A stretch of 64,000 bases of DNA from the NCBI GenBank assembly GCA_963790825.1, contig CAWBPM010000002.1:97702-161701 (forward strand), given 5' to 3'. The DNA is from Candidatus Levyibacteriota bacterium (GTDB taxonomy: Bacteria > Patescibacteriota > Microgenomatia > Levybacterales > UBA12049). A program made the position numbers and the translations under genes. Shown piece after piece: positions 6,109 through 49,244 of the stretch (position 1 is its first letter; each line of letters begins with the position of its first letter). The notes below the pieces were generated by a model that saw only the letters and a list, made by a program, of their open reading frames with translations, made no database searches and was not told the origin of the DNA.

Positions 6109-7425
6109 TTAGTGTAATTTCTTTTCTAAGCTGCTCTTCACCATTTGCGCATCTATCTTTTTTCCGATCTGTCGCATAACTTGACCGACTAGAAACATAA
6201 TAACAGTTTTCTTGCCACTTCTATAGTCCTGAACTGCTTTTTCCTGCTCGCCAAGAACTTTTTCAATAACGGCTTGAAGTTCTGTCTCATCAATTGCTGT
6301 GTTTGTGCTTGTAGTAAGTATTTCTTTAACCAATACTTCAGGCGAAATCTTTACAGAATCAATCTTTTTATTGATAATAATATTGGCAATCTGCTTGGGT
6401 GTAATTTGTTCCCCCTCTCCTTGAATTACCGCAGCTTCGAAGTAATCAGCAAGTGTCCTTTCTCTCGTCAGAATCTCAGCATCGTATTCAGAGAGGCTAA
6501 ACTGCCTGACGAACCGACTTAATTTTTTTACCGGCAGTTCTGGCACTTGTCCTTTCAATTTGCTAATTTGCTCATCTGTCCAAAGAATCGGGGGAATATC
6601 CGGCTCCGGGAAATAGCGGTAATCATTAGCTTCTTCCTTAATCCGTTGTGACACAGTTACATTTTTAAATTCATTCCAACCCCTTGTTTCTTGAACAGGG
6701 GTTTTGTTATCTCTAAGCATTAGTTCCTGACGATTTAGCTCGAAGTTAATCGCCTTTTCCACAAACTTAAAAGAGTTGATATTTTTTACTTCAACTTTGT
6801 AATTGGGAAGTTTCTTATCATCAAGCGTCAGTGAGATATTCGGCTCAAGACGCATATTACCCTTTTCCATATCGGCATTTGATACACCAAGGTAACGTAC
6901 GACCTGCTGAAGATATTGTAAGTATTCTTTTACCTCATCTGCACTGCGGAAGTCCGGCTCGGTAACGATTTCAACCAAAGGAACTCCCGACCGGTTGAAG
7001 TCAATCAAACTTGCGCCTTCCTCGTGTGTTAGTTTACCCGTATCTTCCTCCATATGCACCCGCGTGATTCCGATTTGTTTACCGCTACTAAGTACTATTT
7101 TCCCCTTTAGACCGAAAGGCAGATCATACTGGCTGATTTGATACCCCTTAGGTAAGTCGGGATAAAAGTAATTTTTTCTATCAAACTTCGAAAATCGAGA
7201 AATCTCACAATCTAAAGCTAATGCAATCATGACACACCACTCAAGGGCTTTAGCATTTGGTATCGGCAACGCTCCCGGTAAGCCGAGGCAGACAGGACAG
7301 GTATGCGTGTTGGGTTTTTGGCTGAAGTAATCAGCAGAACATGAACAAAACATCTTAGACTTTGTTTTTAACTCAACATGAACTTCTAAGCCAATGATAG
7401 GAATGTATTTACTCGTCATACTCAA
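6109..7425 (-). CDS. gatB: Asp-tRNA(Asn)/Glu-tRNA(Gln) amidotransferase subunit B
   Basis: N-terminus IPIIGLEVHVELKTKSKMFCSC with the Cys cluster typical of GatB. 438 aa. Confidence 0.85.
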   Translation of the reverse strand: MSMTSKYIPIIGLEVHVELKTKSKMFCSCSADYFSQKPNTHTCPVCLGLPGALPIPNAKALEWCVMIALALDCEISRFSKFDRKNYFYPDLPKGYQISQYDLPFGLKGKIVLSSGKQIGITRVHMEEDTGKLTHEEGASLIDFNRSGVPLVEIVTEPDFRSADEVKEYLQYLQQVVRYLGVSNADMEKGNMRLEPNISLTLDDKKLPNYKVEVKNINSFKFVEKAINFELNRQELMLRDNKTPVQETRGWNEFKNVTVSQRIKEEANDYRYFPEPDIPPILWTDEQISKLKGQVPELPVKKLSRFVRQFSLSEYDAEILTRERTLADYFEAAVIQGEGEQITPKQIANIIINKKIDSVKISPEVLVKEILTTSTNTAIDETELQAVIEKVLGEQEKAVQDYRSGKKTVIMFLVGQVMRQIGKKIDAQMVKSSLEKKLH

Positions 7426-9590: not shown

Positions 9591-10001
9591 CTACTTAGGA
9601 TCGACAGGTTTTTCATCGTTTTCTAATGGTCTTCCCAATGCTCGTTTAAGTGCCAGATTAAGGCGCTTAACATCATCTTTCGTAACCAACTCTTGATCAC
9701 GAAAGTCGCCCGTACACCACGCCATATAGCTCCGACAACTCTTTATTATGTCAGGGTCTGTAATCTCATGAGTTATATCTATAGCCTTGGCAAATCCAAG
9801 ATTAACTTTATGAAAAGTTGTTTTACGAAATTTATTATCTCGATTTAGTGAAGTACTATCCAAGAGTTCTGAAGGATCCTCATTATAAGTATCAAGAATC
9901 TCAATTAGTTTAGGAAAAGCAGGCGTCGGCTCCTTGCCTTTTCTCGGTGATTGTTCTGCTTGTTGGGGTGAATTAGGTCTTTGGTTTTCACTCATCTTCA
10001 A
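9591..10001 (-). CDS. hypothetical protein
   Basis: 136-aa ORF between the histidine phosphatase gene and gatC, overlapping the gatC stop by 14 nt. No recognisable motif. Confidence 0.4.
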   Translation of the reverse strand: MKMSENQRPNSPQQAEQSPRKGKEPTPAFPKLIEILDTYNEDPSELLDSTSLNRDNKFRKTTFHKVNLGFAKAIDITHEITDPDIIKSCRSYMAWCTGDFRDQELVTKDDVKRLNLALKRALGRPLENDEKPVDPK

Positions 10002-10272
10002 AAATTCCTTTCACTCGAAAAGCGCCGTTTTTTACTTTCTTACCATTCGATAATGCTTCAGTTTGCGTAAGAGAGGAAGCTGAAACATCTTCTCTGGTAA
10101 CATTTTCAAGACCAGTAACTTGACTTGTTTCTTTAATATTTTTTGTATCCAGATTAGTCAATTTGTTCACATAATCCAAGACTTCTGATAATTGGCTCTC
10201 GAATTTACTTACCTCTTCAGCTTTGATTGTCAGATTCGCAAGTCTTGCGACATGTTGTACATTAATTTTCAT
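9988..10272 (-). CDS. gatC: Glu-tRNA(Gln) amidotransferase subunit C
   Basis: 94 aa. MKINVQHVARLANLTIKAEEVSKFESQLSEVLDYVNKL matches the GatC family. Confidence 0.75.
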   Translation of the reverse strand: MKINVQHVARLANLTIKAEEVSKFESQLSEVLDYVNKLTNLDTKNIKETSQVTGLENVTREDVSASSLTQTEALSNGKKVKNGAFRVKGIFEDE

Positions 10273-22384: not shown

Positions 22385-23026
22385 TTGGAAAAAAATATGC
22401 CGGGAGTATTATACAGAAAAGAGCGGGAACTCTTAGAATTTCTTACCCAATTCCAAAAATCGTACGGATATGCTCCGACGCTTCGGGAGATGGCACTGGC
22501 GACCCATCACAAAAGCGTTTCCACGGTGCATGCAATTATCCGTAACCTGGTAGACAAAAACTATATTCAAAAAGTTGACGGTAATTCCCGGATTTTAAAA
22601 GTACTTGACCAGAATTTTGCTTCTACAAAATTAAACAATCTGCCGTCGATTGAGTTGCCTTTGATGGGATTTATTGCGGCGGGCAAGCCGCTTGAGCCGC
22701 ATACCGATCCAAATGCGACATTTCACGTCTCAGCAACCATGATCAGCGGATCAAAAACCGCGTATGTTCTTCAGGTGAAAGGGGAGTCGATGATTGAAGA
22801 CGGCATATTGGACGGTGACTTTGTGGTTATCGAGCGGGTTCAGGAGGCATATAACGGACAAATTGTAGTCGCACTTGTGGATGACAATCTCGCGACTCTC
22901 AAAAGGTTTTATAAAAACGGTGACAGAATTGAACTTCATCCGGCAAATCATACGATGAGTCCGATTTATCCCAAAAGCCTTAAAATTCAGGGCAAAGTCG
23001 TGGGGCTAGTCCGAAAATTTCTCTAA
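22385..23026 (+). CDS. lexA: LexA repressor (S24 peptidase family)
   Basis: N-terminal winged HTH (YAPTLREMALATHHKSVSTVHAIIRNL) and a C-terminal S24 domain with GESMIEDGILDGDFVVIE and the catalytic Ser/Lys context. Divergent from uvrB. Confidence 0.8.
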   Translation: MEKNMPGVLYRKERELLEFLTQFQKSYGYAPTLREMALATHHKSVSTVHAIIRNLVDKNYIQKVDGNSRILKVLDQNFASTKLNNLPSIELPLMGFIAAGKPLEPHTDPNATFHVSATMISGSKTAYVLQVKGESMIEDGILDGDFVVIERVQEAYNGQIVVALVDDNLATLKRFYKNGDRIELHPANHTMSPIYPKSLKIQGKVVGLVRKFL

Positions 23027-26472: not shown

Positions 26473-26704
26473 AATACACAAATTAAAAATATAAGTCTAT
26501 AAAATAATAACTTAATTACATATCCGAATATTTGATATCTTAACTTGTCATTCATGCCTGAATTCCCGTTGTTCGGAATACTACGAAACCGGACTGGACA
26601 AAAACTTAATATCCACAGTTCGAATCCTAATCGCGGAGCAAATTAGCCTCAAAATTGACTTCTTTTTGAATTGAGACAACAATGTATTTGTAAGGAGATA
26701 TTTT

Positions 26705-26893
26705 ATGAACCTCACAACAAGTCTTATCGTTTTTGCCGCAATTATTATATCCGTTAATAATTTCGTGTTGTTTTATGTAATTAAGAATAATGGAATACAT
26801 TCAAGAATACACTCGCTTGGTATGATAGTATTTTTGATTAGTCTTATTGAAATTGTGGCAATTGGAATTTGGGCTTATATCCACTTAAGATAA
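26705..26893 (+). CDS. small membrane protein (two TM helices)
   Basis: 62-aa hydrophobic ORF preceded by AAGGAGATATTTTATG. Confidence 0.35.
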   Translation: MNLTTSLIVFAAIIISVNNFVLFYVIKNNGIHSRIHSLGMIVFLISLIEIVAIGIWAYIHLR

Positions 26894-26954
26894 TGGGTTC
26901 TCTCCATTTCCATCAGTCGGTTTCCGAAACCGATAGTGTGGAAACCGGAATATT

Positions 26955-27431: not shown

Positions 27432-27609
27432 ACTAAGAAGTTGAATTAATTTTCTCAAAAGAAGAGATAAAGTAGGTTCTCCCCATTTACATTAGGTGGA
27501 GCTCTGTTTGGCCTTAAATCGTGCCTAAAAAGGATTACGGGAATCGAACCCTAAAAAATAGAAGTCGTATAAACCCGGATTTGTGACACAGGGCTAATTA
27601 CCTACTATA

Positions 27610-28314
27610 TTAGTAAAGTAATTTAAATGAATTCATAATTTTATTAAAGATTTCCTGCTGATTACTACTATATAAGCTGCCTGATTGCATAATATAGACA
27701 AAGTTTTTATCCTGGACGTATGCTGTTTGTCGTTTGTATTCAACGGGTTCAATATTAGATTTTGTATAAATACCCTCTAGAGTGCTGTGCAGCTGATTAG
27801 TCATAACAAAGTTAGCTATAACGGTATTTAGTCCATTTATCTCAGTTGAGTTATATCCTGTAGCTTCTGAGTAGAGACCATCATTTTCTTTAGCAAATGA
27901 TAATAAATCTTTATTATTTCCTATATCATACAACACTAAAGAAATGTTGCTATCATACATTTTGACTAAAGCAGGAGCGGAGTTTCTATTCATATGTAAA
28001 AGACCACTAGAGCCAGCAACTTGATACGCATTCTTTGTCAGCGGTGAATAAGCTCCTGTATTTACTACGTAAAAATCAGGATAATTGAAAGTATAGCCAT
28101 TTACCAAATCTATGTAAGTTTCCCAACCTTGTTCTCTTGGCTGACTATTATAGATCTGCTCAAATTTAGTTTGGTAATTAATCGGCAAGATGTTAGTATA
28201 TGTAAACAATAAATAAGAAACTACAAGCCCACAAAAAAAGGCTAAAATGATAAAAAGTAAAAATGGTATGGTTTTTGGTAATATTTTCTTGGCCATAGAT
28301 TCATTATGCACCAA
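27610..28314 (-). CDS. hypothetical membrane-anchored protein
   Basis: 234 aa with an N-terminal signal-anchor helix (IPFLLFIILAFFCGLVVSYLLF) and an Asn/Tyr/Ser-rich extracytoplasmic part. No known motif. Confidence 0.45.
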   Translation of the reverse strand: MVHNESMAKKILPKTIPFLLFIILAFFCGLVVSYLLFTYTNILPINYQTKFEQIYNSQPREQGWETYIDLVNGYTFNYPDFYVVNTGAYSPLTKNAYQVAGSSGLLHMNRNSAPALVKMYDSNISLVLYDIGNNKDLLSFAKENDGLYSEATGYNSTEINGLNTVIANFVMTNQLHSTLEGIYTKSNIEPVEYKRQTAYVQDKNFVYIMQSGSLYSSNQQEIFNKIMNSFKLLY

Positions 28315-28392
28315 TATAGAAGACTTGCAAAGGATGATATTTAAACCATCTCCTTGTCATATAACATCAAATTAACAATATGTTGCTCATGT

Positions 28393-28454
28393 AGGTTCAA
28401 ACGTCGACCTGCGACTCCACGCAGTGGATAGTCCCTTTATGGGGTAAGCGAAGC
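28393..28454 (+). repeat. family-A structured repeat, copy A1
   Basis: AGGTTCAAACGTCGACCTGCGAC-TCCACGCAGTGGA-TAGTCCCTTTATGGGGTAAGCGAAGC. Shares both ends and the double-hairpin layout with A2/A3, but the central hairpin sequence is swapped for a different 5-bp stem (TCCAC/GTGGA versus GATTC/GAATC). Confidence 0.7.
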
Positions 28455-28529
28455 TTAAGAGGTATAATTATTACACAATTATCATAAACATTTAGTATTA
28501 TTACTAAAATTGATTGGAGGTGATGAACA

Positions 28530-28673: not shown

Positions 28674-28940
28674 CAACAAAACAATATTGTGAAGCAGGAT
28701 GGGGCAAGTCAATAAACTAAATCTGAAGCTGAGGAAGTTACGTCTGGGATGTAAAACTACTCTTCTTGATGCTCAATAGTGGCTTTAACATTGTTTACGA
28801 TGCGGAGCTCGGTTTATTCATAATAAATTAGATACCAAGTATTACGAATACACTAACCAAGGACATTTTGGTGGGGATTACTATAAAGAAATTTTCCCTG
28901 AGCTTGTTCAAGCGATTAAAGAAGAGTTAGTTAGAAAATA

Positions 28941-28983
28941 GTTTCAAACGTCGGACTGTAGTCGGAACTCAGTTTAGCCTCAG
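28941..28983 (+). repeat. degenerate, truncated family-A-like repeat
   Basis: GTTTCAAACGTCGGACTGTAGTCGGAACTCAGTTTAGCCTCAG resembles the 5' half of family A (GGTTCGAACGTCGACC...). Confidence 0.35.
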
Positions 28984-29027
28984 AAATGACAAGAAATAGC
29001 ATAGTAGGATGGTGATATAATCACCGT

Positions 29028-29669
29028 ATGAATATAAATCTACATCTGATCAATGCATCAGGAACGCTAAATCCATTTGTCATAGATATTGAAAAGATTT
29101 TTCCTACGACTATTAAACGGATTAGGAAGGTATTGCCTGTTGATAATGTCGATATCATTGTTTGGGAAGATGCTGATTGGGCAATTAAAAAATATGGGCT
29201 AGGAGGACATACGATAAAAGCAAATACAGTAATAGTTTCCATTGATCCGAATAATCCCAAAGCAAAACAATCATTTCCTGAACGTTTTACTACAACACTT
29301 ATGCATGAATTGCACCATGCTACCCGTATGCAAGCACTAGGAGAAGGATTTATTCCACGACTGGAAGCATCAGTAAGAGAAGGACTAGCAGAACACTTTG
29401 AAATACAACTTACAGGTAAAAAGCCAGAAGTATGGGATAATGCACTAACAAAGCAACAACTCACAGAATTCATAAAAATAGCAAAAGAGAATAAAAGTAC
29501 GGAGGACTATTATCTCTATGATTGGTTATTTGGAAATAAAGAACAAAAGATACCAGAATGGACAGGCTACTCGGTTGGGTTTCAACTTATTAACGATTAT
29601 CTAGAGACACATCCTCAAGCTACTCCAGCAACTCTTTACAAAACGAAAGCAGAAGTATTTATAAAATGA
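29028..29669 (+). CDS. putative zinc-dependent peptidase (HExxH motif, DUF2268-like)
   Basis: HELHH motif (TTLMHELHHATRMQALGEG) in a 213-aa soluble protein. First cassette-like gene, followed by repeat A2. Confidence 0.4.
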   Translation: MNINLHLINASGTLNPFVIDIEKIFPTTIKRIRKVLPVDNVDIIVWEDADWAIKKYGLGGHTIKANTVIVSIDPNNPKAKQSFPERFTTTLMHELHHATRMQALGEGFIPRLEASVREGLAEHFEIQLTGKKPEVWDNALTKQQLTEFIKIAKENKSTEDYYLYDWLFGNKEQKIPEWTGYSVGFQLINDYLETHPQATPATLYKTKAEVFIK

Positions 29670-29700
29670 GTCTTACCTCTGCGCTAAATAGTACTGTACC

Positions 29701-29763
29701 AGGTTCGAACATTGGCCTGCGACGATTCGAAGAATCTAGTCCCCTTGTGGGGTAAGCGGAGCT
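29701..29763 (+). repeat. family-A structured repeat, copy A2
   Basis: AGGTTCGAACATTGGCCTGCGACGATTCGAAGAATCTAGTCCCCTTGTGGGGTAAGCGGAGCTG. Starts about 30 nt after the stop of the 29028-29669 gene. Confidence 0.7.
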
Positions 29764-29824
29764 GATATGCTTTGATATATTTTGTTAGTCTCAAGGTTGC
29801 TTCTGGTATAATGGAACTATTCAT

Positions 29825-30169
29825 ATGGATGAGACAGTAAAATTGGTAGTTTTTGTACCTGAAACTCATGCAGATATAGTCAGAGAAGCTATGGGCAAGG
29901 CAGGAGCTGGAATAGTGGGAGATTATAAATACTGTAGCTTTTCAGTTAAAGGAACGGGAAGATTTATCCCGCTCGATACTGCACATCCATTTATTGGTAA
30001 GGTAGGCAATTTGGAAGAAGTAGAGGAAGAACGAATCGAAACTGTTTGTTATAAGAAAGACTTGGAAAAGATAATTGCAGCTATAAAAAAGGTTCATCCC
30101 TATGAAGAAGTTGCATTAGACGTTTATCCTTTGGTTTTAAATCCTCATGAAACAACATATAAGAAATAG
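29825..30169 (+). CDS. hypothetical protein, PII/CutA-like fold suspected (resembles NIF3-family insert domain)
   Basis: 114 aa. KLVVFVPETHADIVREAMGKAGAGIVGDYKYCSFSVKGTGRFIP...EERIETVCYKKDLEKII pattern. Family assignment is from memory only. Confidence 0.3.
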   Translation: MDETVKLVVFVPETHADIVREAMGKAGAGIVGDYKYCSFSVKGTGRFIPLDTAHPFIGKVGNLEEVEEERIETVCYKKDLEKIIAAIKKVHPYEEVALDVYPLVLNPHETTYKK

Positions 30170-30232
30170 TTCCTCACATATTCAACCAGGGAGAGCTCAG
30201 GCTAGTCCCAGTTTTACTAACTTGAATAGGAT
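30168..30232 (+). repeat. family-B repeat, copy B1 (B core + A-like CTAGTCCC segment + inverted partial B core)
   Basis: GTTCCTCACATATTCAACCAGGGAGAGCTCAGGCTAGTCCCAGTTTTACTAACTTGAATAGG. The forward core ATATTCAA and the inverted TTGAATA lie about 45 nt apart. Begins 1 nt after the stop of the preceding gene. Confidence 0.65.
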
Positions 30233-30258
30233 AACAAAACCTCTGATATAATTCTCAT

Positions 30259-30696
30259 GTGGCAATAAAATTTGAATTTCGTGATATGACTGACAACGAA
30301 TATAAACAAGAGCAGTCTGCGTTCGATGAACACGGGTTAGAGTTTGGTAATCCTCCCGAGAAGCAAGAACGTTTTGGATTTATAGCCACTGAAAATGAGG
30401 AATTTGTAGGTTGCTCAAGTGGATTAGCACAAAAAAATAATGGTCAATATGGCAAATACTTCTATTTGAGTGATTTATTGGTTGAAAAAAAATATCGAAA
30501 ATATGGCTATGGAAAAAAGCTTTTAGAGTTGCTTGAAAGTAAACTAAAGTTGCTTGGTATAGAATATGTTTGGACATGGACAGCAGGTTATGAAGCCCCA
30601 CCTTTTTATCTAAAACAAGGATATAAGACTTTTACAACATTTGAGAATTATTACCCGTCTGGTCATGCTAGAGTTGGATTTATAAAAAAGCTATAG
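30259..30696 (+). CDS. GNAT family N-acetyltransferase
   Basis: Acetyl-CoA binding region LLVEKKYRKYGYGKKLLELLE (Q/RxxGxG/A-like) in a 145-aa protein. Confidence 0.65.
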   Translation: MAIKFEFRDMTDNEYKQEQSAFDEHGLEFGNPPEKQERFGFIATENEEFVGCSSGLAQKNNGQYGKYFYLSDLLVEKKYRKYGYGKKLLELLESKLKLLGIEYVWTWTAGYEAPPFYLKQGYKTFTTFENYYPSGHARVGFIKKL

Positions 30697-30707
30697 AGCT
30701 CTAAAGT

Positions 30708-30770
30708 AGGTTCGAACGTCGACCTGCGACGATTCGAAGAATCTAGTCCCCTTATGGGGTAAGCGGAGCT
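30708..30770 (+). repeat. family-A structured repeat, copy A3
   Basis: AGGTTCGAACGTCGACCTGCGACGATTCGAAGAATCTAGTCCCCTTATGGGGTAAGCGGAGCT, 4 differences from A2. Begins 12 nt after the GNAT stop codon. Confidence 0.7.
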
Positions 30771-30848
30771 AAATACCTTACGTTAGAATCATAATTTAGA
30801 TTGATAAAACAAGCCAAATATACAACTCTCTTTAGATAGTTTTGTAAA

Positions 30849-30876
30849 AGGTATGCGGAGTTGAATGTGTGAGGAA
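30849..30876 (-). repeat. mosaic junction: A-3'-end-like segment fused to an inverted family-B core
   Basis: Plus strand reads GGTATGCGGAG-TTGAATGTGTGAGGAA. GGTATGCGGAG resembles the A end GGTAAGCGGAG. The reverse complement of the rest is TTCCTCACACATTCAA, which is the B core with 1 mismatch. Confidence 0.55.
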
Positions 30877-30914
30877 TCATTGACTTGCCTTCTTAATCGT
30901 GCCACACTATTTGT

Positions 30915-31553
30915 ATGGAAGAGCAGGTAAAATCGTTTCAACTTTCCCCAGCCCCTGATAAGAACCACCATAAAAGAGTCATTATGTACGGAATAGGGGC
31001 AATATTTCTTTTGATATTAGGTATGGGAATTGGATATTTAATAGGAATAAATAATACTGTCAGCTATTCAATAAAACCACAGACAGAAACATTAAAGCAA
31101 AATTCAAATACTACCATATTGTCAATTTCTCCTTCCCCAACTGATGACCAAATCTTAAATATGCTTCCTACGCTGGAGCCAGAGTTTCAATGGCAACAAG
31201 TAAAAACAGCACAATTTACTTATCCTTTAACGTCAAACACACAATTATCTGGAGAGCAGAGAATTGGAACTCAAATGGTGCAGGATGCAAATAGTTGGCC
31301 GACACCATCGTTTGCCCCCAGTCACATCGATTTACCAACATTGCTAAAGAATGGTTGGAATGAAGATATTACCTTAGATACAGGAGGTGTAGGAGGAGGA
31401 CAGCAAGGATTTAACAAATTTGAAGGGGGAAAAGAGCGAATTCTTGTTTGGGGAACTTCAATAGGCCCATTGGTTCCATCCGCTAATGGACCGGATGTTC
31501 TCAAATGCCCCTGTACTAGGCAAACAACTGTTTTTATCAGCAATCCCTTCTAA
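30915..31553 (+). CDS. hypothetical membrane-anchored protein
   Basis: 212 aa with a TM helix at residues ~23-45 (VIMYGIGAIFLLILGMGIGYLIG), then a Gln/Thr/Pro-rich extracytoplasmic domain. No motif. Confidence 0.45.
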   Translation: MEEQVKSFQLSPAPDKNHHKRVIMYGIGAIFLLILGMGIGYLIGINNTVSYSIKPQTETLKQNSNTTILSISPSPTDDQILNMLPTLEPEFQWQQVKTAQFTYPLTSNTQLSGEQRIGTQMVQDANSWPTPSFAPSHIDLPTLLKNGWNEDITLDTGGVGGGQQGFNKFEGGKERILVWGTSIGPLVPSANGPDVLKCPCTRQTTVFISNPF

Positions 31554-31603
31554 ATTATAAAAATTATAAGTATCATTAATCCGTTCATGGGCTAAAGTAA
31601 AAA

Positions 31604-31630
31604 TTCCTCACATATTCAACCAGAGGGAGT
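31604..31630 (+). repeat. family-B repeat, copy B2
   Basis: TTCCTCACATATTCAACCAGAGGGAGT. Potential CCTC/GAGG stem. Followed 8 nt later by an ATG opening a 25-codon ORF. Confidence 0.6.
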
Positions 31631-31707
31631 AAAATTATGCTTAGAACGTTTCAGGCAGATAGACAAATTCTTTATGTAACCTTTTCAGAGTTTGGTATAC
31701 TTAATTC

Positions 31708-32184
31708 ATGTTAATTAGAAAAGCAACAATTAACGATGGGCAACAACTGATTGAAAAACTCGCAGAATTCGACGAGTACCTTACTCCATTATTTTCGCCA
31801 GAAATTAATCCCTTTGTCCAATATAAAGATAAAAACAAGACGTTTGAAGAAGTAGTGACGGAATGGCTAAATAACCCAGAATATATTCTTTTTGTTGCAG
31901 AAGATAACGGAAGTTTACTCGGTCATATATGTGGAACAGTTAAAAAGAAAAAATACTCTGTAAAAGATAGGGAAGGATCAGTAGAAGAATGGTTTGTTTC
32001 AGAAGAATATAGGCACCAAGGAATAGGTAAACAACTTTATCAAGCACTTTTATTAGAATTCAAAAAAGCAAAGTGCACTCATTTAAAATTACGTGTGTTT
32101 ACCGATAACAAGAAAACAATAGGTATGTATCATAAAATGGGTTTTATGGATCTAGAGTTTACTTTGATTAAAAAACTAGAATAA
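31708..32184 (+). CDS. GNAT family N-acetyltransferase
   Basis: VSEEYRHQGIGKQLYQALLLEF acetyl-CoA binding motif. 158 aa. Confidence 0.65.
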   Translation: MLIRKATINDGQQLIEKLAEFDEYLTPLFSPEINPFVQYKDKNKTFEEVVTEWLNNPEYILFVAEDNGSLLGHICGTVKKKKYSVKDREGSVEEWFVSEEYRHQGIGKQLYQALLLEFKKAKCTHLKLRVFTDNKKTIGMYHKMGFMDLEFTLIKKLE

Positions 32185-32194
32185 TCAAGTAATA

Positions 32195-32222
32195 GTTCCC
32201 CGCATATTCAATCAGATGGGGC
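32195..32222 (+). repeat. family-B repeat, copy B3 (compensatory CCCC/GGGG stem)
   Basis: GTTCCCCGCATATTCAATCAGATGGGGC. Where B2 has CCTC...GAGG, this copy has CCCC...GGGG at the equivalent positions. Confidence 0.6.
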
Positions 32223-32333
32223 AAATTATTATAGTCTCAACCAACTATATCGGACTGTACCAACTCCAAATAGAATTCTAGTTTTGGTTAAGATTTGCAA
32301 TCCAATCCTATAGCTGATATGTTTCTTGTAATT

Positions 32334-32935
32334 ATGCCAAAAGAATTTGAAGGTATTCTTGTAGCTCTCGAAGGAATTGATAATGGGGGTAAAAGTAGCC
32401 ATATTAATATCCTAGAAAGAAGACTTATAGCAAAGGAATTTCGTGTGAGATTACAAAAGAACTAAGCACACCAGTAGGGGAACTTGTCCGGAAGTATTTA
32501 AGAGAGGGTAATTTTTCTCCGCATCTGAAAACTTTACTTTTTGCAGCCGATAGAGTTGAAAGAGTTGATAAGCAAGTCAAACCAGCACTCCAGCAAGGAA
32601 AAGTCGTCCTTGCTGATAGATGGTCTCTTTCAGCAGTAGTGTACCGAGGCGTTGAGGGATTTGATGCTGAGTATGTTTTGGCAGTGAATTCTAAAACCCT
32701 GCAGCCAAATAAGATTTTCCTTATAGATATACCTGCTGAACTTTCAGTAAAACGGGGCGAATTAGGGAACAAACCACATCCGTATTCGATTGAATTTCTT
32801 GATAATGCAAGGAGACACTATCTTGAATTAGCAGGAAAAGATTCAGACATTGAAGTAATCGATGGAACACAATCTTTTGATGTGATAAATAACCTTCTCC
32901 TTCAACGAATCTTGAAATTAAGAGAGGGTAAATAA
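32334..32935 (+). pseudogene. tmk: thymidylate kinase with one -1 frameshift (pseudogene or 1-nt deletion error)
   Basis: N-terminus MPKEFEGILVALEGIDNGGKSS (P-loop) ends at a TAA near 32461. The rest (ELSTPVGELVRKYLREGNF...LADRWSLSAVVYRGVEG...) continues in the -1 frame to 32935. Restoring one A in TTACAAAAG (to TTAACAAAAG) rejoins the frames. Confidence 0.6.
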
Positions 32936-33006
32936 TGGCGAGAAAAAGACTTGAAGATCAGTAGAAAAAGATAATTTAGTTTATATTTATTCTTGACCTT
33001 TTGATT

Positions 33007-33534
33007 TCACTTATACAGACCTTTATGAATAAAGGGAATAAGAGCTAAAACTACAACATCCTCGTAAAGTTTATCTCTCGTAATCAAATCTTTAGTTAAT
33101 AGTCCAACGGCTCCGTTATTTTGCTTTGAATTGTGTTTTTTAAAGACAGTATCGATTGCATCGCCCAACTCCTTACCCTGTTTTACGAGTTGTGTAACTT
33201 TTTCTGGCAAAAAGTAAGTATCTGTTTTTGCGCTACCGGTTTGATCTTCAGATTTAATAACTACCCATGTAAATGAACTAAGCATACCACCGACTATCTC
33301 AACTCCACCCTCAATTCCTATCCAATAATCAGCTTTTGGAAATATTTTTACAACATTGTTAACCCTGTTTATGGCTCCCTTAATTGTTTCTTTGTCTCCT
33401 ATTGGTTGGCCTGCTACTCTCGACTCAACCGATACAGACTCGATTTTTACATCTTTTGTTTTAAATACTTTCTTGAAGGCGTTTTCAACAGCCCTTATTT
33501 TAACTGGATTGGTAGAAGCTATAACGATTTTCAT
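33007..33534 (-). CDS. yjjX: inosine/xanthosine triphosphatase (YjjX/DUF84 non-canonical NTPase)
   Basis: MKIVIASTNPVKIRAVENAFKKVF...VESRVAGQPIGDKETIKGAINR matches the YjjX family. Start taken at the internal Met, giving a 4-nt overlap with the upstream gene; the ORF as listed extends to 33594. Confidence 0.6.
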   Translation of the reverse strand: MKIVIASTNPVKIRAVENAFKKVFKTKDVKIESVSVESRVAGQPIGDKETIKGAINRVNNVVKIFPKADYWIGIEGGVEIVGGMLSSFTWVVIKSEDQTGSAKTDTYFLPEKVTQLVKQGKELGDAIDTVFKKHNSKQNNGAVGLLTKDLITRDKLYEDVVVLALIPFIHKGLYK

Positions 33535-34301
33535 TTTAAAAGATTGAGTATATCCTGTTTTATTTTTGGTTTTCCCTCTGAACCTAACAACCATAAAGCT
33601 CTATCAAAAGTAATCCAATTTATCCCAGCTTCTTTGCATGCTTTGTTCCACAACAACTTAACTTGCTGTATGTTTTTATCTGTCATTTCGTTATTCTCAA
33701 CAAACCCCATCAAATGAGCAATACGAACATCGTGTATGTCGACCGGTTGTAAGACAGACCCAATATCATTATATTTGAAACCAAAAGTGGAAATCATGGC
33801 CCTAAAAAAGAGATTTCCTGTTTTCGGCCCCATACCTCTAAAATCCTGAATTTTGCCTACTGCTTCTATTGCTGTTTTAGAATCTGTAAACATTTTTGTC
33901 GGGTCGCCATCATAATATTCTTGTAACTTTTTGGAATTTGCCTTATAACGAACAACTGCTTCATTAGGGTAGCGAGGCTTCATATATTCAGTTAGAATTT
34001 TAAACAATTCTTCACCACTCAAATCTCGAATGTATGAGGGTGTAAAAAATTCTGGTTTTTGTTGATAACATCTTGTTGCTCCCGCATATAAAACCCTTCC
34101 TTTAATGGCGTAATCGAGTTGGATTACATAGAATAGAAATAAAGATTGTCGAAGCGGGCTAGCTTCTTTTGGGACATAATCTTCTACATTTCTAAATTCT
34201 GAAAAAACACCTTCACGAGCAAGAAATCTATTTGTAACAGTTGTTACAAACTCCGACACAGCTAAACCTTCTTCATTTTGTAGTTTTCTTTGTCTTCCCA
34301 C
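33531..34301 (-). CDS. HhH-GPD superfamily DNA glycosylase-like protein
   Basis: Helix-hairpin-helix FRGMGPKTGNLFFRAM followed about 20 aa later by VDIHDVRIAHLMG. This resembles the LPGVGxKTA...VDTHxxRV pattern of Nth/AGOG-type glycosylases. No Fe-S cysteine cluster. Confidence 0.45.
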   Translation of the reverse strand: MGRQRKLQNEEGLAVSEFVTTVTNRFLAREGVFSEFRNVEDYVPKEASPLRQSLFLFYVIQLDYAIKGRVLYAGATRCYQQKPEFFTPSYIRDLSGEELFKILTEYMKPRYPNEAVVRYKANSKKLQEYYDGDPTKMFTDSKTAIEAVGKIQDFRGMGPKTGNLFFRAMISTFGFKYNDIGSVLQPVDIHDVRIAHLMGFVENNEMTDKNIQQVKLLWNKACKEAGINWITFDRALWLLGSEGKPKIKQDILNLLK

Positions 34302-34534
34302 TACACAATATTAGCTCGCAGATTGAATAAAATCAACACAAAATTATGCCTGATAATAAGTTCTGATATCATCCACCAGTAAAATAAGACGATGAAAGTT
34401 CTTTATTTCCTAACAAGTTGCCGACAAAGAGATAACTTCGCTTATTAAGGAAATATCAAAGTTATTCTAATATCACGACTTTCGTAAATATTATTATCTA
34501 TTATTTTGATTGTACATTTCTCCGTAATACTAAG

Positions 34535-34580
34535 TTCCCACATATTCAATCCCGGTTTGATCGAAATCAACCAGAGGAGT
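34535..34580 (+). repeat. family-B repeat, copy B4 (with 17-nt palindromic insertion)
   Basis: GTTCCCACATATTCAAT-CCCGGTTTGATCGAAAT-CAACCAGAGGAGT. The core is interrupted by an insertion containing the palindrome TTGATCGAAATCAA. Confidence 0.55.
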
Positions 34581-34595: not shown

Positions 34596-36252
34596 TCAAT
34601 AATCTTCTAAAGTTGAGGTATCACCGATAGGGAGGCCGAGTTCTTTCGCCTTCAAAATTCTTCGCATAATCTTACCTGATCTCGTCTTTGGCAGCTTATC
34701 GATAAATTCAATTTCTCTGGGATATGCATGACCTGCAAGGTATTTTTTTACGTGTTCTGCCAGCTCTTTCTTCAATTCTTCAGACGGCTGATAATCTTTT
34801 TTCAAAACAACAAATGCTTTTATGATTTCCCCACGGAGTGGGTCGGGTTTGCCGAATTACTCCCGCTTCGACAACAGCCGGATGTTTAACCAGCGCGCTT
34901 TCTACCTCAAAAGGTCCTACCCGTTCACCTGAGGTTTTAATAACATCGTCAGCCCGTCCGATAAACCAATAATATCCTTCAGGATCTTTTTTCGCTTTAT
35001 CACCTGACAAATACCAGCCATTTAAGAAGTAACTGTTATATTTCTCTTCATTCTTCCAAACCGTTCTCATAATCGATGGCCAAAACGGTTTCAGACACAA
35101 ATTTCCCTCTTGACCGTCTGAAACAGGCTTCCCTTCGTCATCTAAAATCGCAGCCTGCATCCAAGGAAGTGGCTTTCCCATTGAGCCGGGCTTTACGTCC
35201 AGAGAAGATAGATTAGATATCATAATCGATCCGGTTTCTGTTTGCCACCAGCCATCATGGAAATACATACCAAACGTCTCCTTTCCCCAAATAACTGCTT
35301 CCGGATTTAGCGGTTCACCGACGGATGTTAAATAGCGAAGACTGGACAAATCGTACTTTTTCGTAAGTGCTGCTCCTTGAGCCATAAGCATCCGGATTGC
35401 GGTAGGTGCGGTATACCAAACGGTTACTTTATGTTTTTCAATCAATCCATACCATACTTCAGGATCAAATCTTCCTCCATGAACAAAGGTAGTAATACCT
35501 AAGGACCAGTTACTTAAAATGCTATAAACTATGCCTGTTACCCATCCCGGATCGGCAGTACACCAATACACATCATCGGGTTTCAGGTCAAGTATTAATT
35601 TCGCGCTGGCATGAGACTGAACAATACCCGCATGTGCATGAACAATACCCTTCGGCTTACCGGTGGTTCCTGAGGTATACAACATGAATGCATAATCTTC
35701 AGGCTGAGTATGAACTACGGAGAAGGTCTCAGCTTGCAAATCAAAATCTGCACGGAATTTATCATCGTCAACAACGATGACATGCTCTAAAGCAGGCAAA
35801 TCTTTTATTACCGAATTGATTCGTACGGCTAGATCTTTGTTAGTGATGACGACTTTTGCTTCAGAATTTCCCAATCTGTCTTTTAATGCATCTTGCTGGA
35901 ATGCCGAGAACATACTTCCGGCAATTGCTCCGGTTTTTAAAATACCGAGAAAAGAAATAAATAATTCCGGAATCCGAGGGAGGAAAATAAATACACGGTC
36001 TCCTTTTTTGACGCCTTGGGAAGTTAGGTAATTTGCAATTTTATTGCTTTGTTTCGAAAGTTGAAAGAAGGAATACTCACTTACTTTTCCATCTTCCGAT
36101 TCGAAGATAAGCCCAATTCTATTTCCGTTTCCTCTCTCAATATGTTTATCGACTGCGTTATAAGCACTATTCAGCGATCCATCTTCAAAAAAAGCGATAT
36201 CTTTTTTAGCTGCTTCAAGAAGTGGGTGGGACAGTAGATACTTGTTATCCAT
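34596..36252 (-). pseudogene. acs: AMP-forming acyl/acetyl-CoA synthetase with one +1 frameshift near the C-terminus (pseudogene or sequencing error)
   Basis: 490-aa ORF with the AMP-binding motif YTSGTTGKPKG ends out of frame (…EAGVIRQTRPTPW…). The downstream 69-aa ORF encodes the authentic C-terminus (KAFVVLKKDYQPSEEL…LPKTRSGKIMRRIL). The frames rejoin if one base is removed in GGAGTAATTCGGCAAACC. Confidence 0.6.
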
Positions 36253-45199: not shown

Positions 45200-45766
45200 C
45201 CTTTATTTTCCCTCTTGACAATTAGGAAAAGGATATGATTTACTAAATGCAGAGATATGAAAACAACTGCCCCGATAAATAAACTAGCTAAAGGTTTTAC
45301 CCTCATCGAGCTCTTAGTTGTTATCGGCATTTTAGCAATTCTTTTGGCAATCACCTTAATCGCAATTAATCCGGCCAGACAATTCTCCCAGGCAAATAAT
45401 ACAAAAAGAAGCAGCGATGTGAATGCTATTCTTAATGCCGTCAATCAGTATATGGCAGATAATAAAGGTGCTCTTCCCACAGGTATTAGTACGACAGCCC
45501 AGACGATTAACGGAGTAGATTTTGGAGCCATGTGCACTGCATTGGTTCCTACATATATAGCCGCACTTCCGGTAGATCCATTATCTAATGCAAATGCGGT
45601 ACAGTCTACAGATTGCACGAGTACTACATGGAATACAGGATACGTAGTACAGCAGTTAACAGGTGGCAGCAATAGGCTTACGGTATCCGCACCGGGAGCA
45701 GAGCTGGGGGCCACTATCTCCGTAACCAGATAAAGAGTTTCTCCTTATTAATTTAATTATTATTAA
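45200..45766 (+). repeat. 567-bp perfect direct repeat, copy 1 (pilin promoter + pilin gene + 33 nt 3' flank)
   Basis: Identical base-for-base to 48076-48642 by direct comparison of the printed sequence. The flanks diverge immediately outside both ends. Confidence 0.85.
45257..45733 (+). CDS. pilA: type IV major pilin (prepilin with 13-aa leader, G|FTLIELLVV)
   Basis: MKTTAPINKLAKG|FTLIELLVVIGILAILLAITLIAINP class III signal. 158 aa, with two Cys near the C-terminus (disulfide loop). A TTGACA hexamer lies 35 nt upstream. Confidence 0.8.
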   Translation: MKTTAPINKLAKGFTLIELLVVIGILAILLAITLIAINPARQFSQANNTKRSSDVNAILNAVNQYMADNKGALPTGISTTAQTINGVDFGAMCTALVPTYIAALPVDPLSNANAVQSTDCTSTTWNTGYVVQQLTGGSNRLTVSAPGAELGATISVTR

Positions 45767-48075: not shown

Positions 48076-48642
48076 CCTTTATTTTCCCTCTTGACAATTA
48101 GGAAAAGGATATGATTTACTAAATGCAGAGATATGAAAACAACTGCCCCGATAAATAAACTAGCTAAAGGTTTTACCCTCATCGAGCTCTTAGTTGTTAT
48201 CGGCATTTTAGCAATTCTTTTGGCAATCACCTTAATCGCAATTAATCCGGCCAGACAATTCTCCCAGGCAAATAATACAAAAAGAAGCAGCGATGTGAAT
48301 GCTATTCTTAATGCCGTCAATCAGTATATGGCAGATAATAAAGGTGCTCTTCCCACAGGTATTAGTACGACAGCCCAGACGATTAACGGAGTAGATTTTG
48401 GAGCCATGTGCACTGCATTGGTTCCTACATATATAGCCGCACTTCCGGTAGATCCATTATCTAATGCAAATGCGGTACAGTCTACAGATTGCACGAGTAC
48501 TACATGGAATACAGGATACGTAGTACAGCAGTTAACAGGTGGCAGCAATAGGCTTACGGTATCCGCACCGGGAGCAGAGCTGGGGGCCACTATCTCCGTA
48601 ACCAGATAAAGAGTTTCTCCTTATTAATTTAATTATTATTAA
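48076..48642 (+). repeat. 567-bp perfect direct repeat, copy 2
   Basis: Identical to 45200-45766 (offset 2876 bp). Confidence 0.85.
48133..48609 (+). CDS. pilA: type IV major pilin, exact duplicate of 45257-45733
   Basis: Encoded protein identical over all 158 aa. Lies inside repeat copy 2. Confidence 0.8.
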   Translation: MKTTAPINKLAKGFTLIELLVVIGILAILLAITLIAINPARQFSQANNTKRSSDVNAILNAVNQYMADNKGALPTGISTTAQTINGVDFGAMCTALVPTYIAALPVDPLSNANAVQSTDCTSTTWNTGYVVQQLTGGSNRLTVSAPGAELGATISVTR

Positions 48643-48767
48643 TCCATTATTTATTTGTATTTTGTTTAATTTTATTTCTTATGAAGATAGCCTTTTTAAG
48701 TATACAACTTTCAAAATATTCCCTATTGACAAATAATTGAAAAAACTGATTAAATTAGTGCATAGAT

Positions 48768-49244
48768 ATGAAAACAACTGCCCCGATAAATAAACTAGCT
48801 AAAGGTTTTACCCTCATCGAGCTCTTAGTTGTTATCGGTATTTTGGCAGTATTACTGGCAATTACTTTAGTTGCCATCAATCCGGCCAGACAATTTTCCC
48901 AGGCAAATAATACAAAACGAAGCAGTGACGTAAACTCCATTCTGGATGCAATTAATCAGTACATGGCAGATAATAAAGGTGCTCTTCCCACAGGTATTAG
49001 TACAACTGCCGCAACAATTAATGGGACGGGCTTTACAGCTCTCTGTAGCGCTTTAGTACCTACTTATATAGCCGCTCTTCCGACTGATCCATTATCGAAT
49101 AATTCTGCCGTACAGTCCAGTAGCTGTACAAGTACAACATGGAATACAGGATACGTAGTACAGCAGTTAGTAGGAGGAGGTAATAGGGTAACTGTTTCTG
49201 CTCCTATGGCTGAGCTTAGTGCAACTGTTTCAGTAACGAGATAG
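48768..49244 (+). CDS. pilA: type IV major pilin, divergent third paralogue
   Basis: Same leader and N-terminal helix (MKTTAPINKLAKGFTLIELLVVIGILA). About 30 substitutions concentrated in the central/C-terminal variable region. Own TTGACA-N17-ATTAAAT promoter-like sequence upstream. Confidence 0.8.
   Translation: MKTTAPINKLAKGFTLIELLVVIGILAVLLAITLVAINPARQFSQANNTKRSSDVNSILDAINQYMADNKGALPTGISTTAATINGTGFTALCSALVPTYIAALPTDPLSNNSAVQSSSCTSTTWNTGYVVQQLVGGGNRVTVSAPMAELSATVSVTR

Follow-up and report, generated by a model that had tools for sequence, protein, structure and literature searches.

Genes and junction elements of the array

The window, that is, the whole 64-kb stretch of DNA analysed (part of a 751-kb genome), contains a same-strand array of small genes. 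In arrays of this kind every gene has its own junction element, and units can be as small as 0.4 kb. The genes and elements, with scores where these were obtained, are located as follows.

26618..26640 (+): bare tRNA-Asn 3' fragment GTTCGAATCCTAATCGCGGAGCA, array head, closely similar in sequence to the tRNA-Asn(gtt) 3' end in locus L182
26641: cassette left-end motif AATTAGCCTCAAAATTGAC, directly after the tRNA-Asn 3' fragment
26705..26893 (+): w1, 62-aa membrane protein, cassette gene
26895..26921 (+): B'-type junction element GGGTTCTCTCCATTTCCATCAGTCGG, 2 nt past the w1 stop codon
26955..27431 (+): w2, 158 aa, cassette gene
27474..27504 (+): B'-type junction element TAGGTTCTCCCCATTTACATTAGGTGGAGCT, superfamily HMM E=0.16
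28392..28455 (+): family A copy 1, B-like ends TAGGTTC ... GCGAAGCT, three internal hairpins
28939..28969 (+): short junction element TAGTTTCAAACGTCGGACTGTAGTCGGAACT, superfamily HMM E=7e-5
29028..29669 (+): w5, DUF2268, cassette gene
29700..29763 (+): family A copy 2
29825..30169 (+): w6, 114 aa, cassette gene with a TAG stop
30163..30198 (+): B1, GAAATAG-TTCCTCACATATTCAACCAG-GGAGAGCT, 36.4 bits; the next cassette opens with CAGGCTAGTCCC and has TGATATAAT at ~30243
30259..30696 (+): w7, GNAT acetyltransferase, cassette gene
30707..30770 (+): family A copy 3
30860..30877 (-): inverted, truncated B core TTCCTCACACATTCAAC, only 6.4 bits, without flanking element parts
30915..31553 (+): w8, 212 aa, without Pfam family, cassette gene
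31597..31629 (+): B2, GTAAAAA-TTCCTCACATATTCAACCAG-AGGGAG, 35.7 bits
31708..32184 (+): w9, GNAT acetyltransferase, cassette gene
32189..32223 (+): B3, GTAATAG-TTCCCCGCATATTCAATCAG-ATGGGGCA, 34.2 bits
34527..34579 (+): B4, degenerate copy, 12.3 bits

At the head of the array ARAGORN found neither a tRNA body nor an intact tRNA-Asn. The TAG of B1 is the stop codon of w6, and the start of w9 is leaderless or nearly so, because TGGTATACT lies immediately upstream. The element at 28939 is followed by CAGTTTAGCCTCAG and then by the promoter of the DUF2268 gene. The two B' elements are approximately 80% identical as judged by eye, and the superfamily HMM that matched the one at 27474 had been built without B copies. 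Cassette cargo is accessory in character (GNATs, HicA, HepT/MNT, DUF4258/DUF2283, Zeta toxin, AbiV, HAD and orphans), and the array region is variable among relatives that have the flanking tmk block in common. B3 forms the final junction ahead of this conserved block; in relatives L149-L151, tmk and its promoter are shared with the window and B3 is absent. B4 sits beyond the conserved tmk/NTPase/glycosylase-like block, on the far side from the array. The w1 cassette also occurs in L157 and L151, hence in three genomes with differing neighbourhoods, and in two of the three (the window and L151) its homology begins directly after ...GGAGCA. The flank 3' of the B' element at 27474 is homologous to the flank that follows B in L156.

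When both strands of the window were searched with the 17-mer TTCCYCRCATATTCAAY, exact matches were found on the forward strand at 30170, 31604 and 32196, together with a match at 34534 (+) with 2 mismatches and one at 30860-30876 (-) with 1 mismatch. These five matches compare with 0.11 expected, and five were reached in 0 of 100 shuffles; the 13-mer CRCATATTCAAYC occurs four times against 0.33 expected. The repeat family proposed in an earlier note on this DNA thus exists, with three clean forward copies, a damaged B4 and an inverted fragment. The copies are confined to 30.1-34.6 kb, within 4.4 kb of the window, and the 17-mer found none in the remaining ~59 kb on either strand. The inverted copy near 30860 is present as that note had described it and is probably a fragment; the block CTAGTCCC was likewise confirmed as common to the B1 flank and family A. 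In B4 a palindrome does split the core, but it is 14 nt long (TTGAT-CGAA-ATCAA, within an insertion of ~19 nt) and not 17, and the core has lost 1 nt in addition. An inverted partial core reported some 45 nt past B1 was at chance level (8 of 11 positions matched, shuffle p=0.19) and is absent at the other copies.

Pairing, covariation and translation

It had also been suggested that a covarying CCYC/GRGG stem, formed at the same positions in B2 and B3, might mask an SD-like GGGAG in front of an ORF of 25-32 codons, which would make B a translational leader or riboregulator. In B2 such pairing is possible (CCTC with GAGG, with an ATG 8 nt after GGGAG), and this ATG opens 25 codons as claimed; the ATG of B3, however, lies inside the element and opens 21. 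The register of the stem differs between the two copies, because the GAGG of B2 occupies alignment columns 34-37 and the GGGG of B3 columns 37-40. Among 24 aligned copies from 15 contigs, not one pair was changed on both sides, paired cells amounted to 59.4% against 60.1% in shuffles, and the majority of CCCC copies retained GAGGGAG. An alternative stem between the inverted ends GTTCCY and GGGAGC showed no covariation either, the folding energies of B1, B2 and B4 were those of shuffled sequences, and no Rfam family matched B. The GGGAG part is absent from 8-10 of the 24 copies. Only 5 of the 24 have an ATG in the ~35 nt that follow the core, and neither its position nor the length of its ORF is constant: the short ORFs are not conserved. 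The true downstream genes, which are often leaderless, are each preceded by an extended -10 promoter of their own, and B is placed relative to the upstream stop codon rather than to the downstream start. A translational leader is thus already refuted as far as comparative data allow, and we give it very little credence. A cis-regulatory RNA leader of the riboswitch-like type was rejected on the absence of covariation, the variable distance to the start codon and the lack of a conserved ORF or Rfam family.

B in other loci and its relation to tRNA-Asn

Copies elsewhere were found in 15 metagenome loci beyond the window (33-46% GC), which amount to 14 distinct sequences since L153 and L170 are the same. 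These matches reach well past the 20 nt used as query, and the carriers are a group of ultra-small (CPR/Patescibacteria-like) bacteria. Several loci have 2-4 same-strand copies at spacings of 0.36-3.6 kb. Of 29 copies, 22 have a co-oriented ORF that stops 0-76 nt 5' of B, 16 of the 29 are followed at 35-140 nt by a TGnTAnAAT or TATAAT box, and intact copies have a single orientation relative to the genes. Conservation extends from ATAATAG to CCAG(AGGGAGC) and then ends abruptly. The core is almost invariant over at least 14 contigs with unalignable flanks, and at least five unrelated sequences follow it downstream.

Strict co-orientation with the upstream gene, near its stop codon, is a feature expected if B were a 3'-UTR RNA element: a factor-dependent terminator, a processing site, or a stabiliser or insulator between independently promoted genes. 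Recognition would then depend on sequence, perhaps through Rho-type loading at a C-rich, G-poor site; the core TTCCCCACATATTCAACC has eight C and no G. Canonical intrinsic terminators in the array region numbered 4 against 6.0 expected, with none at B, and insulation would be sensible because each downstream gene has its own promoter. However, B has no conserved fold, it is missing from the ~55 other genes of the window and restricted to the variable array, and the tRNA-Asn head, the common GGAGCA ends and the exact reshuffling described below would be left unexplained. We consider this explanation unlikely, although it heads the alternatives; an RNA-level role and a recombination-site role could also occur together in B.

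B might instead be a miniature selfish repeat, similar to MITEs or REP sequences, that inserts behind stop codons, with the cassette structure as a by-product. Its short imperfect inverted ends (GTTCCCC and AGGGAGC) and the TAG or AAAATAG-like sequence often present on both sides would fit, as would the inverted fragment and the internally interrupted copy in the window. B lies no more than 150 nt from a contig end in 5 of 9 short contigs, which tend to break there. With REP/BIME elements and MITEs it thus shares the character of a short intergenic repeat after stop codons, in some cases preceded by (G)TAG, that breaks assemblies. Unlike them, B is not palindromic and forms no hairpin, its intact copies are clustered and one-way rather than dispersed in both directions, target-site duplications are inconsistent, and no RAYT or cognate transposase was found as partner. 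Integrase-type genes in the array loci were limited to the DDE (rve) transposases of L153 and L186, which are just 23% identical. A selfish repeat would also leave unexplained why length and ends are shared with the 3' part of tRNA-Asn; we regard it as improbable.

This likeness extends to a superfamily consisting of B, family A and B' (plus element X), with the pattern (T)AG-GTTC ... GGAGC(A/T). Elements of equal rank are 26-30 nt long and read TAG-GTTC...CAG..GGAGCA, followed by AAAATAGCCTCAAAA. In a MAFFT alignment the elements matched tRNA-Asn from GGTTCTAGG to GGAGCA, corresponding to the variable loop through to the 3' end; the tRNA-Asn 3' end itself is matched by 26618-26640 of the window and by positions 1-25 of L165. 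B scores weakly against the tRNA (E values of 0.4-2.5 for B1 and B3), and B and the tRNA-Asn end diverge in the middle. B is best read, on its sequence, as a copy-like relative of ~30 bases of the tRNA-Asn gene end, either derived from it or mimicking it.

Junction reshuffling and comparison with known systems

In a related metagenomic population a full tRNA-Asn(gtt) gene, identified by ARAGORN at 68-140 of L182, heads an array in the order tRNA-Asn, cassette 1, element X, HAD cassette, B. Across three assemblies of this population, each of two left partners (element X or the tRNA end) was observed next to each of two right partners (the B-terminated HAD cassette or cassette 1), which makes all four combinations; B itself is present there solely as the next junction (J5).

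J1: tRNA joined to cassette 1 (L182)
J2: X' joined to cassette 1 (L191)
J3: X joined to the HAD cassette (L182, L183-185, L191)
J4: tRNA 3' end joined to the HAD cassette (L165; initial 25 nt of this single contig)

All four are joined exactly after GAGCA. L165 is elsewhere 100% identical to L182 across 8,538 nt, so the exchange is seen between near-identical strains, and a single metagenome yielded both L165 and L191. For the strain represented by the window, a search for alternative alleles found none; a full tRNA-Asn head was not seen in the window (3' fragment only), L152, L153, L157, L161 or L187.

We take B to be the sequence-conserved 3' terminal att-type site of small mobile one-gene cassettes, with a probability of roughly 0.58. 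Each cassette consists of 5-9 nt, a TTAGCCTCAAA-type left end, an extended -10 promoter of its own, a single gene that is often leaderless, a stop codon and a junction element of ~30 nt belonging to type B (the commonest), B', X or family A. The cassettes are stacked head to tail from the 3' end of a tRNA-Asn gene, the presumed primary insertion site, or from a fragment of it. Exchange would proceed by breakage and joining at a fixed point within or just past the GAGCA that ends every element; since this point falls 2 nt beyond the discriminator base, the tRNA would be left intact. A site-specific recombinase encoded elsewhere in the genome and acting in trans would catalyse the exchange, joining sites without attC-like folding or spacer homology. 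That a single enzyme should serve both B and the tRNA end is not self-evident, because their middles differ. Scans of ORFs of the window yielded no tyrosine or serine recombinase; no Phage_integrase-type gene was seen in per-ORF Pfam scans of L152, L153, L157, L161 and L165 or in the gene tables of L182-L190, and no recombinase among the best 25 of 79 families in a pooled scan of 67 ORFs. The earlier suggestion that the copies could act as recombination cores is supported, if unproven, by the location of B at same-strand cassette junctions, its tRNA-Asn-like family and the four-way reshuffling; we infer that the window's own copies are, or formerly were, used as exchange sites.

Classical asn-tRNA islands are tRNA-seeded genomic islands, and the arrays resemble this class: in L182 a full tRNA gene stands proximally, the inserted DNA is separated by direct repeats that match the 3' part of the tRNA, variability peaks beside the tRNA, and filled as well as empty alleles occur in one population. 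They differ from it in that the units are single genes of 0.4-1.5 kb that lack both integrase and replication modules, the repeats have split into the conserved families B, B', X and A with the tRNA match lost in the middle, and exchange takes place immediately beyond the tRNA end instead of within its T or anticodon loop. The elements might be inert scars without present function: decayed partial-tRNA attachment repeats that remain after larger integrase-bearing elements integrated one after another at tRNA-Asn and eroded. The partial tRNA-Asn heading the window array and the full gene heading that of L182 are in keeping with such a history, a model documented for the tycheposon islands of Prochlorococcus, which are tRNA-seeded (bioRxiv 10.1101/2020.12.28.424599). 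Decay, however, would not be expected to leave the B core near-invariant between unalignable flanks, an element is found on every single gene even in the smallest units, no integrase remnants were seen, and exchange occurs between near-identical strains. Inert scars rank second among the alternatives, and we doubt that they account for B.

An att-type role for B would correspond to that of attC in integrons, but as a double-strand sequence motif (tRNA-Asn variable loop, T arm and acceptor strand, ending in ...GGAGCA). attC is an imperfect palindrome in which the inverse core RYYYAAC is paired to GTTRRRY 50-150 nt downstream, and it folds as single-stranded DNA, the bottom-strand hairpin having extrahelical bases. 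B contains ATTCAAC, but a complementary core was not above chance in 27 copies (p 0.12-1.0); an attC core-pair regex gave one pair in 26-35 kb, which was intragenic, and 8 in the whole window versus 7.3 in shuffles. Four junction sites, each folded as DNA for either strand, gave z values of -0.76 to +1.15. The arrays are like integrons in their same-strand order of small accessory cassettes, most of which have one gene (GNATs, toxin-antitoxin, orphans), in the recombination-site-like repeat that ends every cassette, in junctions reshuffled at one exact point and in a fixed primary site at the array head, here the tRNA-Asn 3' end; as in CALINs, no integrase is nearby. They are unlike integrons in that B has no attC architecture, R''/R' pairing or single-strand fold, no intI was found, the cassettes carry their own promoters, and the site is a fixed tRNA-end-like sequence of ~30 nt. 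The B arrays are best read as carrying attC-analogue sites without attC structure, akin in kind to both integrons and tRNA-seeded islands. Tentatively, and with less confidence than we place in the att-type role of B itself, we suggest an undescribed integron-like gene-capture system in CPR/Patescibacteria-like bacteria, with tRNA-Asn mimics that end the cassettes, a tRNA-Asn primary site and a trans recombinase. If true, such a system would need neither attC-like folding nor spacer homology.

The pdif modules of Acinetobacter plasmids and IMEX elements are Xer/dif-based, and sites of this type have two inverted arms of ~11 bp on either side of a 6-8 bp spacer. B differs from their sites in having no 11-6-11 layout: its weak inverted ends lie 14-16 nt apart without covariation, it is conserved most in its asymmetric centre, and its sites are direct, not alternating. 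It is like them in that short sites flank exchangeable genes and a housekeeping recombinase encoded elsewhere could serve.

Copies of B in the window and the array that holds them

The degenerate 17-mer TTCCYCRCATATTCAAY, the core of the approximately 30-nt junction repeat B, has five matches in the window where 0.11 is expected by chance, and no shuffled sequence attains five, which bears out the existence of the repeat family proposed in the earlier note. The 13-nt core has four window matches against 0.33 expected. Copies are confined to 30.1-34.6 kb, the remainder of the 64-kb window being without any.

Matches to the B core (17-mer) in the window
30170, 31604 and 32196, + strand: B core, 0 mismatches
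34534, + strand: B core of copy B4, 2 mismatches
30860-30876, - strand: inverted B core, 1 mismatch

B4 has an insertion with the palindrome TTGAT-CGAA-ATCAA that had been described, but the palindrome is 14 nt long, not 17; the copy also has a 1-nt deletion. As stated before, CTAGTCCC is common to the flank of the first copy, B1, and to family A, another junction repeat, and an ATG is present 3' of the second copy, B2. The "inverted partial core" placed after B1 agrees at 8 of 11 positions, which is chance level (p=0.19). An acetyl-CoA-synthetase-like gene adjoining the degenerate B4 (34596-36252, - strand) is seemingly broken near its 3' end, into ORFs 34780-36252 and 34596-34805.

The window (31-43% G+C, from a contig of 751 kb) has Patescibacteria/CPR assemblies as its nearest DNA relatives and carries housekeeping genes (uvrB, lexA, rsmI-like, ATP synthase, type IV pilus/T2SS genes and PPDK). 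About nine small genes on the + strand occupy 26.6-32.3 kb. Every array gene has its own TGnTATAAT-type box upstream, often near enough to the start codon for a leaderless mRNA, and is followed by a repeat, which may be B, the 65-nt family A (28392, 29700, 30707) or a shorter relative.

Array genes and promoter boxes in the window
+ strand: 62-aa membrane protein
+ strand: 158-aa protein
+ strand: 47-aa ORF
+ strand: DUF2268 protein
+ strand: 114-aa protein
+ strand: GNAT acetyltransferase (first)
+ strand: 212-aa orphan
+ strand: GNAT acetyltransferase (second)
27610-28314, - strand: 234-aa ORF within the array stretch
29012-29030, 29804-29827, 30243-30261, 31692-31710: extended -10 boxes of cassette genes (likewise in the cassettes of contigs L164 and L172)

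In these cassettes (a promoter, one gene, its stop codon and a junction element) the extended -10 box (TGnTATAAT) ends 6-12 nt ahead of the start codon, which would leave the mRNAs with little or no leader. A module, GGAGCAAAATAGCCTCAAAATTGA-N-TATAAT, is conserved ahead of unrelated genes at several loci.

Relatives that share the adjoining block of glycosylase-like gene, NTPase and tmk (74-79% DNA identity) have other DNA on both its sides and no B copies; the array thus lies in a variable region. In one relative, L151, the block is flanked by an 85-nt repeat (6840-6924 and 9988-10072, 88% identical) that looks like part of a coding sequence (QDxVQMEAIRSKWEEIKKL); the third and fourth B copies flank the same block in the window. 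The thymidylate kinase gene of the window (about 32335-32935) is split by a 1-nt frameshift; Logan contig L120, which is identical apart from this, has an intact gene of 205 aa. The frameshift is due either to misassembly or to strain variation.

Occurrence of B elsewhere and candidate identities

A scan of GTDB genome contigs with the 17-mer gave at least 119 single matches, about 500 being expected from the size of the collection; among the matches listed, similarity ends at the pattern, and they were rejected as chance matches. Scans of viral contigs found B at chance level only and family A not at all. On metagenome contigs, a 20-nt pattern detected 30 loci, 15 of which match well past the pattern (33-46% G+C) and represent 14 distinct sequences, those of L153 and L170 being identical. 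The consensus is aATAATAG-TTCCCCACATATTCAACCAG-AGGGAGCA, and profile searches found additional, more divergent copies. Short contigs hold two to four same-strand copies at a spacing of 0.36-1.6 kb.

B copies on short metagenome contigs
L164, 1584, 2028 and 2432, same strand: B copies
L152, same strand: three B copies
L153, same strand: four B copies
L161, same strand: four B copies

For 22 of 29 copies, the end of an ORF in the same orientation lies 0-76 nt before the core; the others are mostly degenerate or at contig ends. A -10 box is present 35-140 nt after B in 16 of the 29. The 3' edge of B is sharp after CCAG(AGGGAGC), beyond which the same core leads into five or more unrelated sequences. 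Genes next to B are of accessory type (GNAT, HAD, EamA, small kinase, GIY-YIG protein, HicA, HepT/MNT, DUF4258/DUF2283, Zeta toxin, AbiV and orphans). Literature searches on integrons or intergenic repeats in Patescibacteria returned nothing relevant.

A CCYC/GRGG covarying stem had been proposed for B. In an alignment of 24 copies no pair has changed in both members, and the paired cells amount to 59.4%, versus 60.1% in shuffles; for an alternative stem, GUUCCY/GGGAGC, the values in the same alignment are 70.8% and 71.8%. The CCCC...GGGG of B3, taken to compensate the CCTC...GAGG of B2, falls at different alignment positions (columns 37-40 versus 34-37). Folding of B1, B2, B4 and the inverted copy is not better than that of shuffles; B3 alone folds well (z=-2.7), via its private flanks. 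Rfam has no match to B at the gathering threshold or at E<=10. The short ORFs after B are not conserved: an ATG lies near the 3' end of the core in only 5 of 24 copies, and both its position and the ORF length vary. With no covariation, no Rfam family and no conserved ORF, the reading of B as a riboregulator or translational leader falls away. No intrinsic terminator coincides with B, and that candidate was also rejected. Since covariation, a shared fold, an Rfam match, a fixed ORF and a terminator are all lacking, conservation of B is at the level of primary sequence. A parallel role at the RNA level, in insulation or termination between independently promoted genes, may nevertheless exist.

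Several other identities were rejected. A promoter on either strand would have the wrong spacing, and the promoter scan was at chance (33 found, 31.4 expected). For a coding fragment (IVPHIFNQ), the variable positions show by eye no third-codon-position bias across copies. Resemblances to the LexA box, CRP, the ARG box and a dif half-site were judged coincidental, as B lacks dyad symmetry and its spacing is in kilobases; a dif-type site was rejected as well. B also resembles the E. coli type I-E CRISPR repeat, GTTCCCCGC...CCAGCGGGG; this too was judged coincidental, given the absence of dyad symmetry and copies kilobases apart. A DNA uptake sequence was dropped because the copies are clustered. 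REP and MITE elements do not agree with the absence of a palindrome, the single orientation, the clustering and the lack of a consistent duplication; the likeness of the flanks (AAAATAG on both sides) is inconsistent between copies, which argues against target-site duplication.

Junction elements, tRNA-Asn and probable exchange at a fixed point

When junctions were aligned across loci, B proved to be one of several equivalent elements. From 5 to 9 nt after every element of this superfamily there is a TTAGCCTCAAAA-type motif, then the next promoter.

Junction elements of the B superfamily
B: (T)AG-GTTCCCCACATATTCAACCAGAGGGAGCA
L172 element: TAG-GTTCTAACGTCGTCCATCAGGCGGAGCA
L157, first element: TAG-GTTCGAACATCGCCTATCCCGCGGAACA
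L157, second element: TAG-GTTCTCACATCCCCACCAGACAGAGCA
L161 element: TGA-GTTCTAACAACACTCACTAGACGGAGCA
Window 27474, B' element: TAG-GTTCTCCCCATTTACATTAGGTGGAGCT
Window 28939, short junction element: TAG-TTTCAAACGTCGGACTGTAGTCGGAACT
Family A: TAG-GTTCGAAC...GCGGAGCT

The element heading the window array (26616-26640), CAGTTCGAATCCTAATCGCGGAGCA, resembles a tRNA end. Contig L182, which extends L165 upstream, holds a tRNA-Asn(gtt) gene at 68-140, and the 3' end of this gene, ...GGTTCTAGGTTCGAGTCCTAGTCGCGGAGCA, confirms that look. In a MAFFT alignment the elements line up with the L182 tRNA-Asn from the variable loop to the 3' end, a stretch of 30 nt in the tRNA, 28 in the junction element X and 29 in B. 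A profile built without B copies picks out the window junction elements, including B1 and B3, with weak scores for B (E 0.4-2.5).

In family A (window 28392-28455, 29700-29763 and 30707-30770) the copies differ in a central 5-bp hairpin by fully compensatory changes, with UCCAC-GCA-GUGGA in copy 1 versus GAUUC-GAA-GAAUC in copies 2 and 3, and there is a second hairpin, CCCC-UUAU-GGGG. A-like elements in the relative L149 (8787-8819, 13010-13045, 16069-16108) have a CUCCAC...GUGGAAG hairpin; one of these elements lies at the boundary of the tmk promoter. Thus family A, unlike B, may need a fold, as RNA or single-stranded DNA. A 37-nt stretch after B', AATCGTGCCTAAAAAGGATTACGGGAATCGAACC (window 27513-27549), is 89% identical to that after B in L156 (1008-1043); on the - strand it is like a degenerate tRNA T arm (GGGTTCGATTCCCGT), for which ARAGORN makes no call.

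The order in L182 is tRNA-Asn, cassette 1, HAD cassette, TCTTAAGTTAGCC.... Cassette 1 (914 nt, with an orphan 220-aa gene) ends in X, ...GGTCAGAGCGAGCA, and the HAD cassette runs from CTTAAGGTTAGCC... through HAD to B, ...CCAGAGGGAGCA. L165, from another assembly, is 100% identical to L182 over 8,538 nt; there the last 25 nt of the tRNA, at the contig end, are joined straight to CTTAAGGTTAGCC, and cassette 1 is absent. In L191, from the same metagenome as L165, what stands ahead of cassette 1 is a copy of X (90% identical) and its upstream 30 nt, in place of the tRNA. Each of the two left partners (tRNA end, X) was thus found with each of the two right partners (cassette 1, HAD cassette) in a related population, the pairing of tRNA end with HAD cassette being read from 25 nt at a contig end. 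In all four combinations the switch point is in the GAGCA that they share or directly behind it, 2 nt beyond the discriminator base. Five identical bases are too few for RecA-type homologous recombination, and the same boundary occurs at every junction examined, in several genomes; judged from these sequence comparisons, the reshuffling points to site-specific exchange.

Two other cases agree with this. The window's 62-aa cassette is also present in L151 and L157, where its neighbourhoods are different, and in the window and L151 homology begins directly after GGAGCA. In L186, the HAD cassette, with a B-like element at its end, adjoins the left end of a 101-aa cassette that in L188 and L165 stands after a different B-like element. 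For the window's own strain, a search for alternative alleles found only identical contigs on record, breaking inside family A.

Candidate recombinases and comparison with known systems

None of the window ORFs of about 180-560 aa judged possible recombinases is an integrase, and no recombinase was found in the window or the B-array loci read, apart from DDE rve transposases of L153 and L186. These genes (L153 4642-5505; L186 about 1372-2522) lie inside B arrays, adjoin B-type elements, are 23% identical to each other and look like insertion sequences. The L186 insertion breaks the left end of a cassette just past the junction. In position, both are like insertion sequences that target integron attC sites.

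The "recombination core" alternative of the earlier note is the best-supported explanation, on the basis of junction position, the tRNA-like superfamily and the GAGCA exchange in a related population; B is best described as a junction site of tRNA-Asn-derived type that is attC-like yet differs from attC in structure. The systems closest in logic are integrons and tRNA-seeded islands. B arrays share with integrons the one-gene cassette arrays, exact junctions and a primary site. Unlike classical integrons, they have no R''/R' core pairs, no single-strand folding of the junction sites and no intI, and their cassettes carry promoters; the attC model itself was rejected for B for want of core pairs and a single-strand fold. 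In tRNA-seeded islands, one insertion after another is marked by a partial repeat of the tRNA (Hackl et al., bioRxiv 10.1101/2020.12.28.424599). B arrays likewise have tRNA-part repeats between inserted units, but each unit consists of one gene and has no integrase, the repeats have diverged to form conserved families, and the point of joining is immediately past the end of the tRNA.

CPR genomes are tiny and streamlined, and how they gain and shuffle accessory genes is poorly understood; to our knowledge, reports of integrons, plasmids and prophages from these bacteria are rare. The array cassettes carry acetyltransferase, toxin-antitoxin and abortive-infection genes, with a conserved tRNA-end-like site as boundary. 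If the proposed reading is true, they would form a compact gene-capture platform, convergent with integrons and built on tRNA-type attachment logic. The B core with the GGAGCA|N5-9 TTAGCCTC junction is a searchable signature for mapping flexible gene pools in CPR metagenomes and for a recombinase hunt by co-occurrence. The analysis also illustrates that "covarying stems" drawn from three or four copies can disappear when more copies are added.

Two further features of the window were noted. The LexA repressor gene (22385-23026) adjoins uvrB 4 kb upstream of the array, with which no link was found. A stretch of 567 nt occurs twice with 100% identity (45200-45766 and 48076-48642), with a third copy at 79% (48716-49243); these repeats cover three paralogous 158-aa genes (45257-45733, 48133-48609 and 48768-49244).
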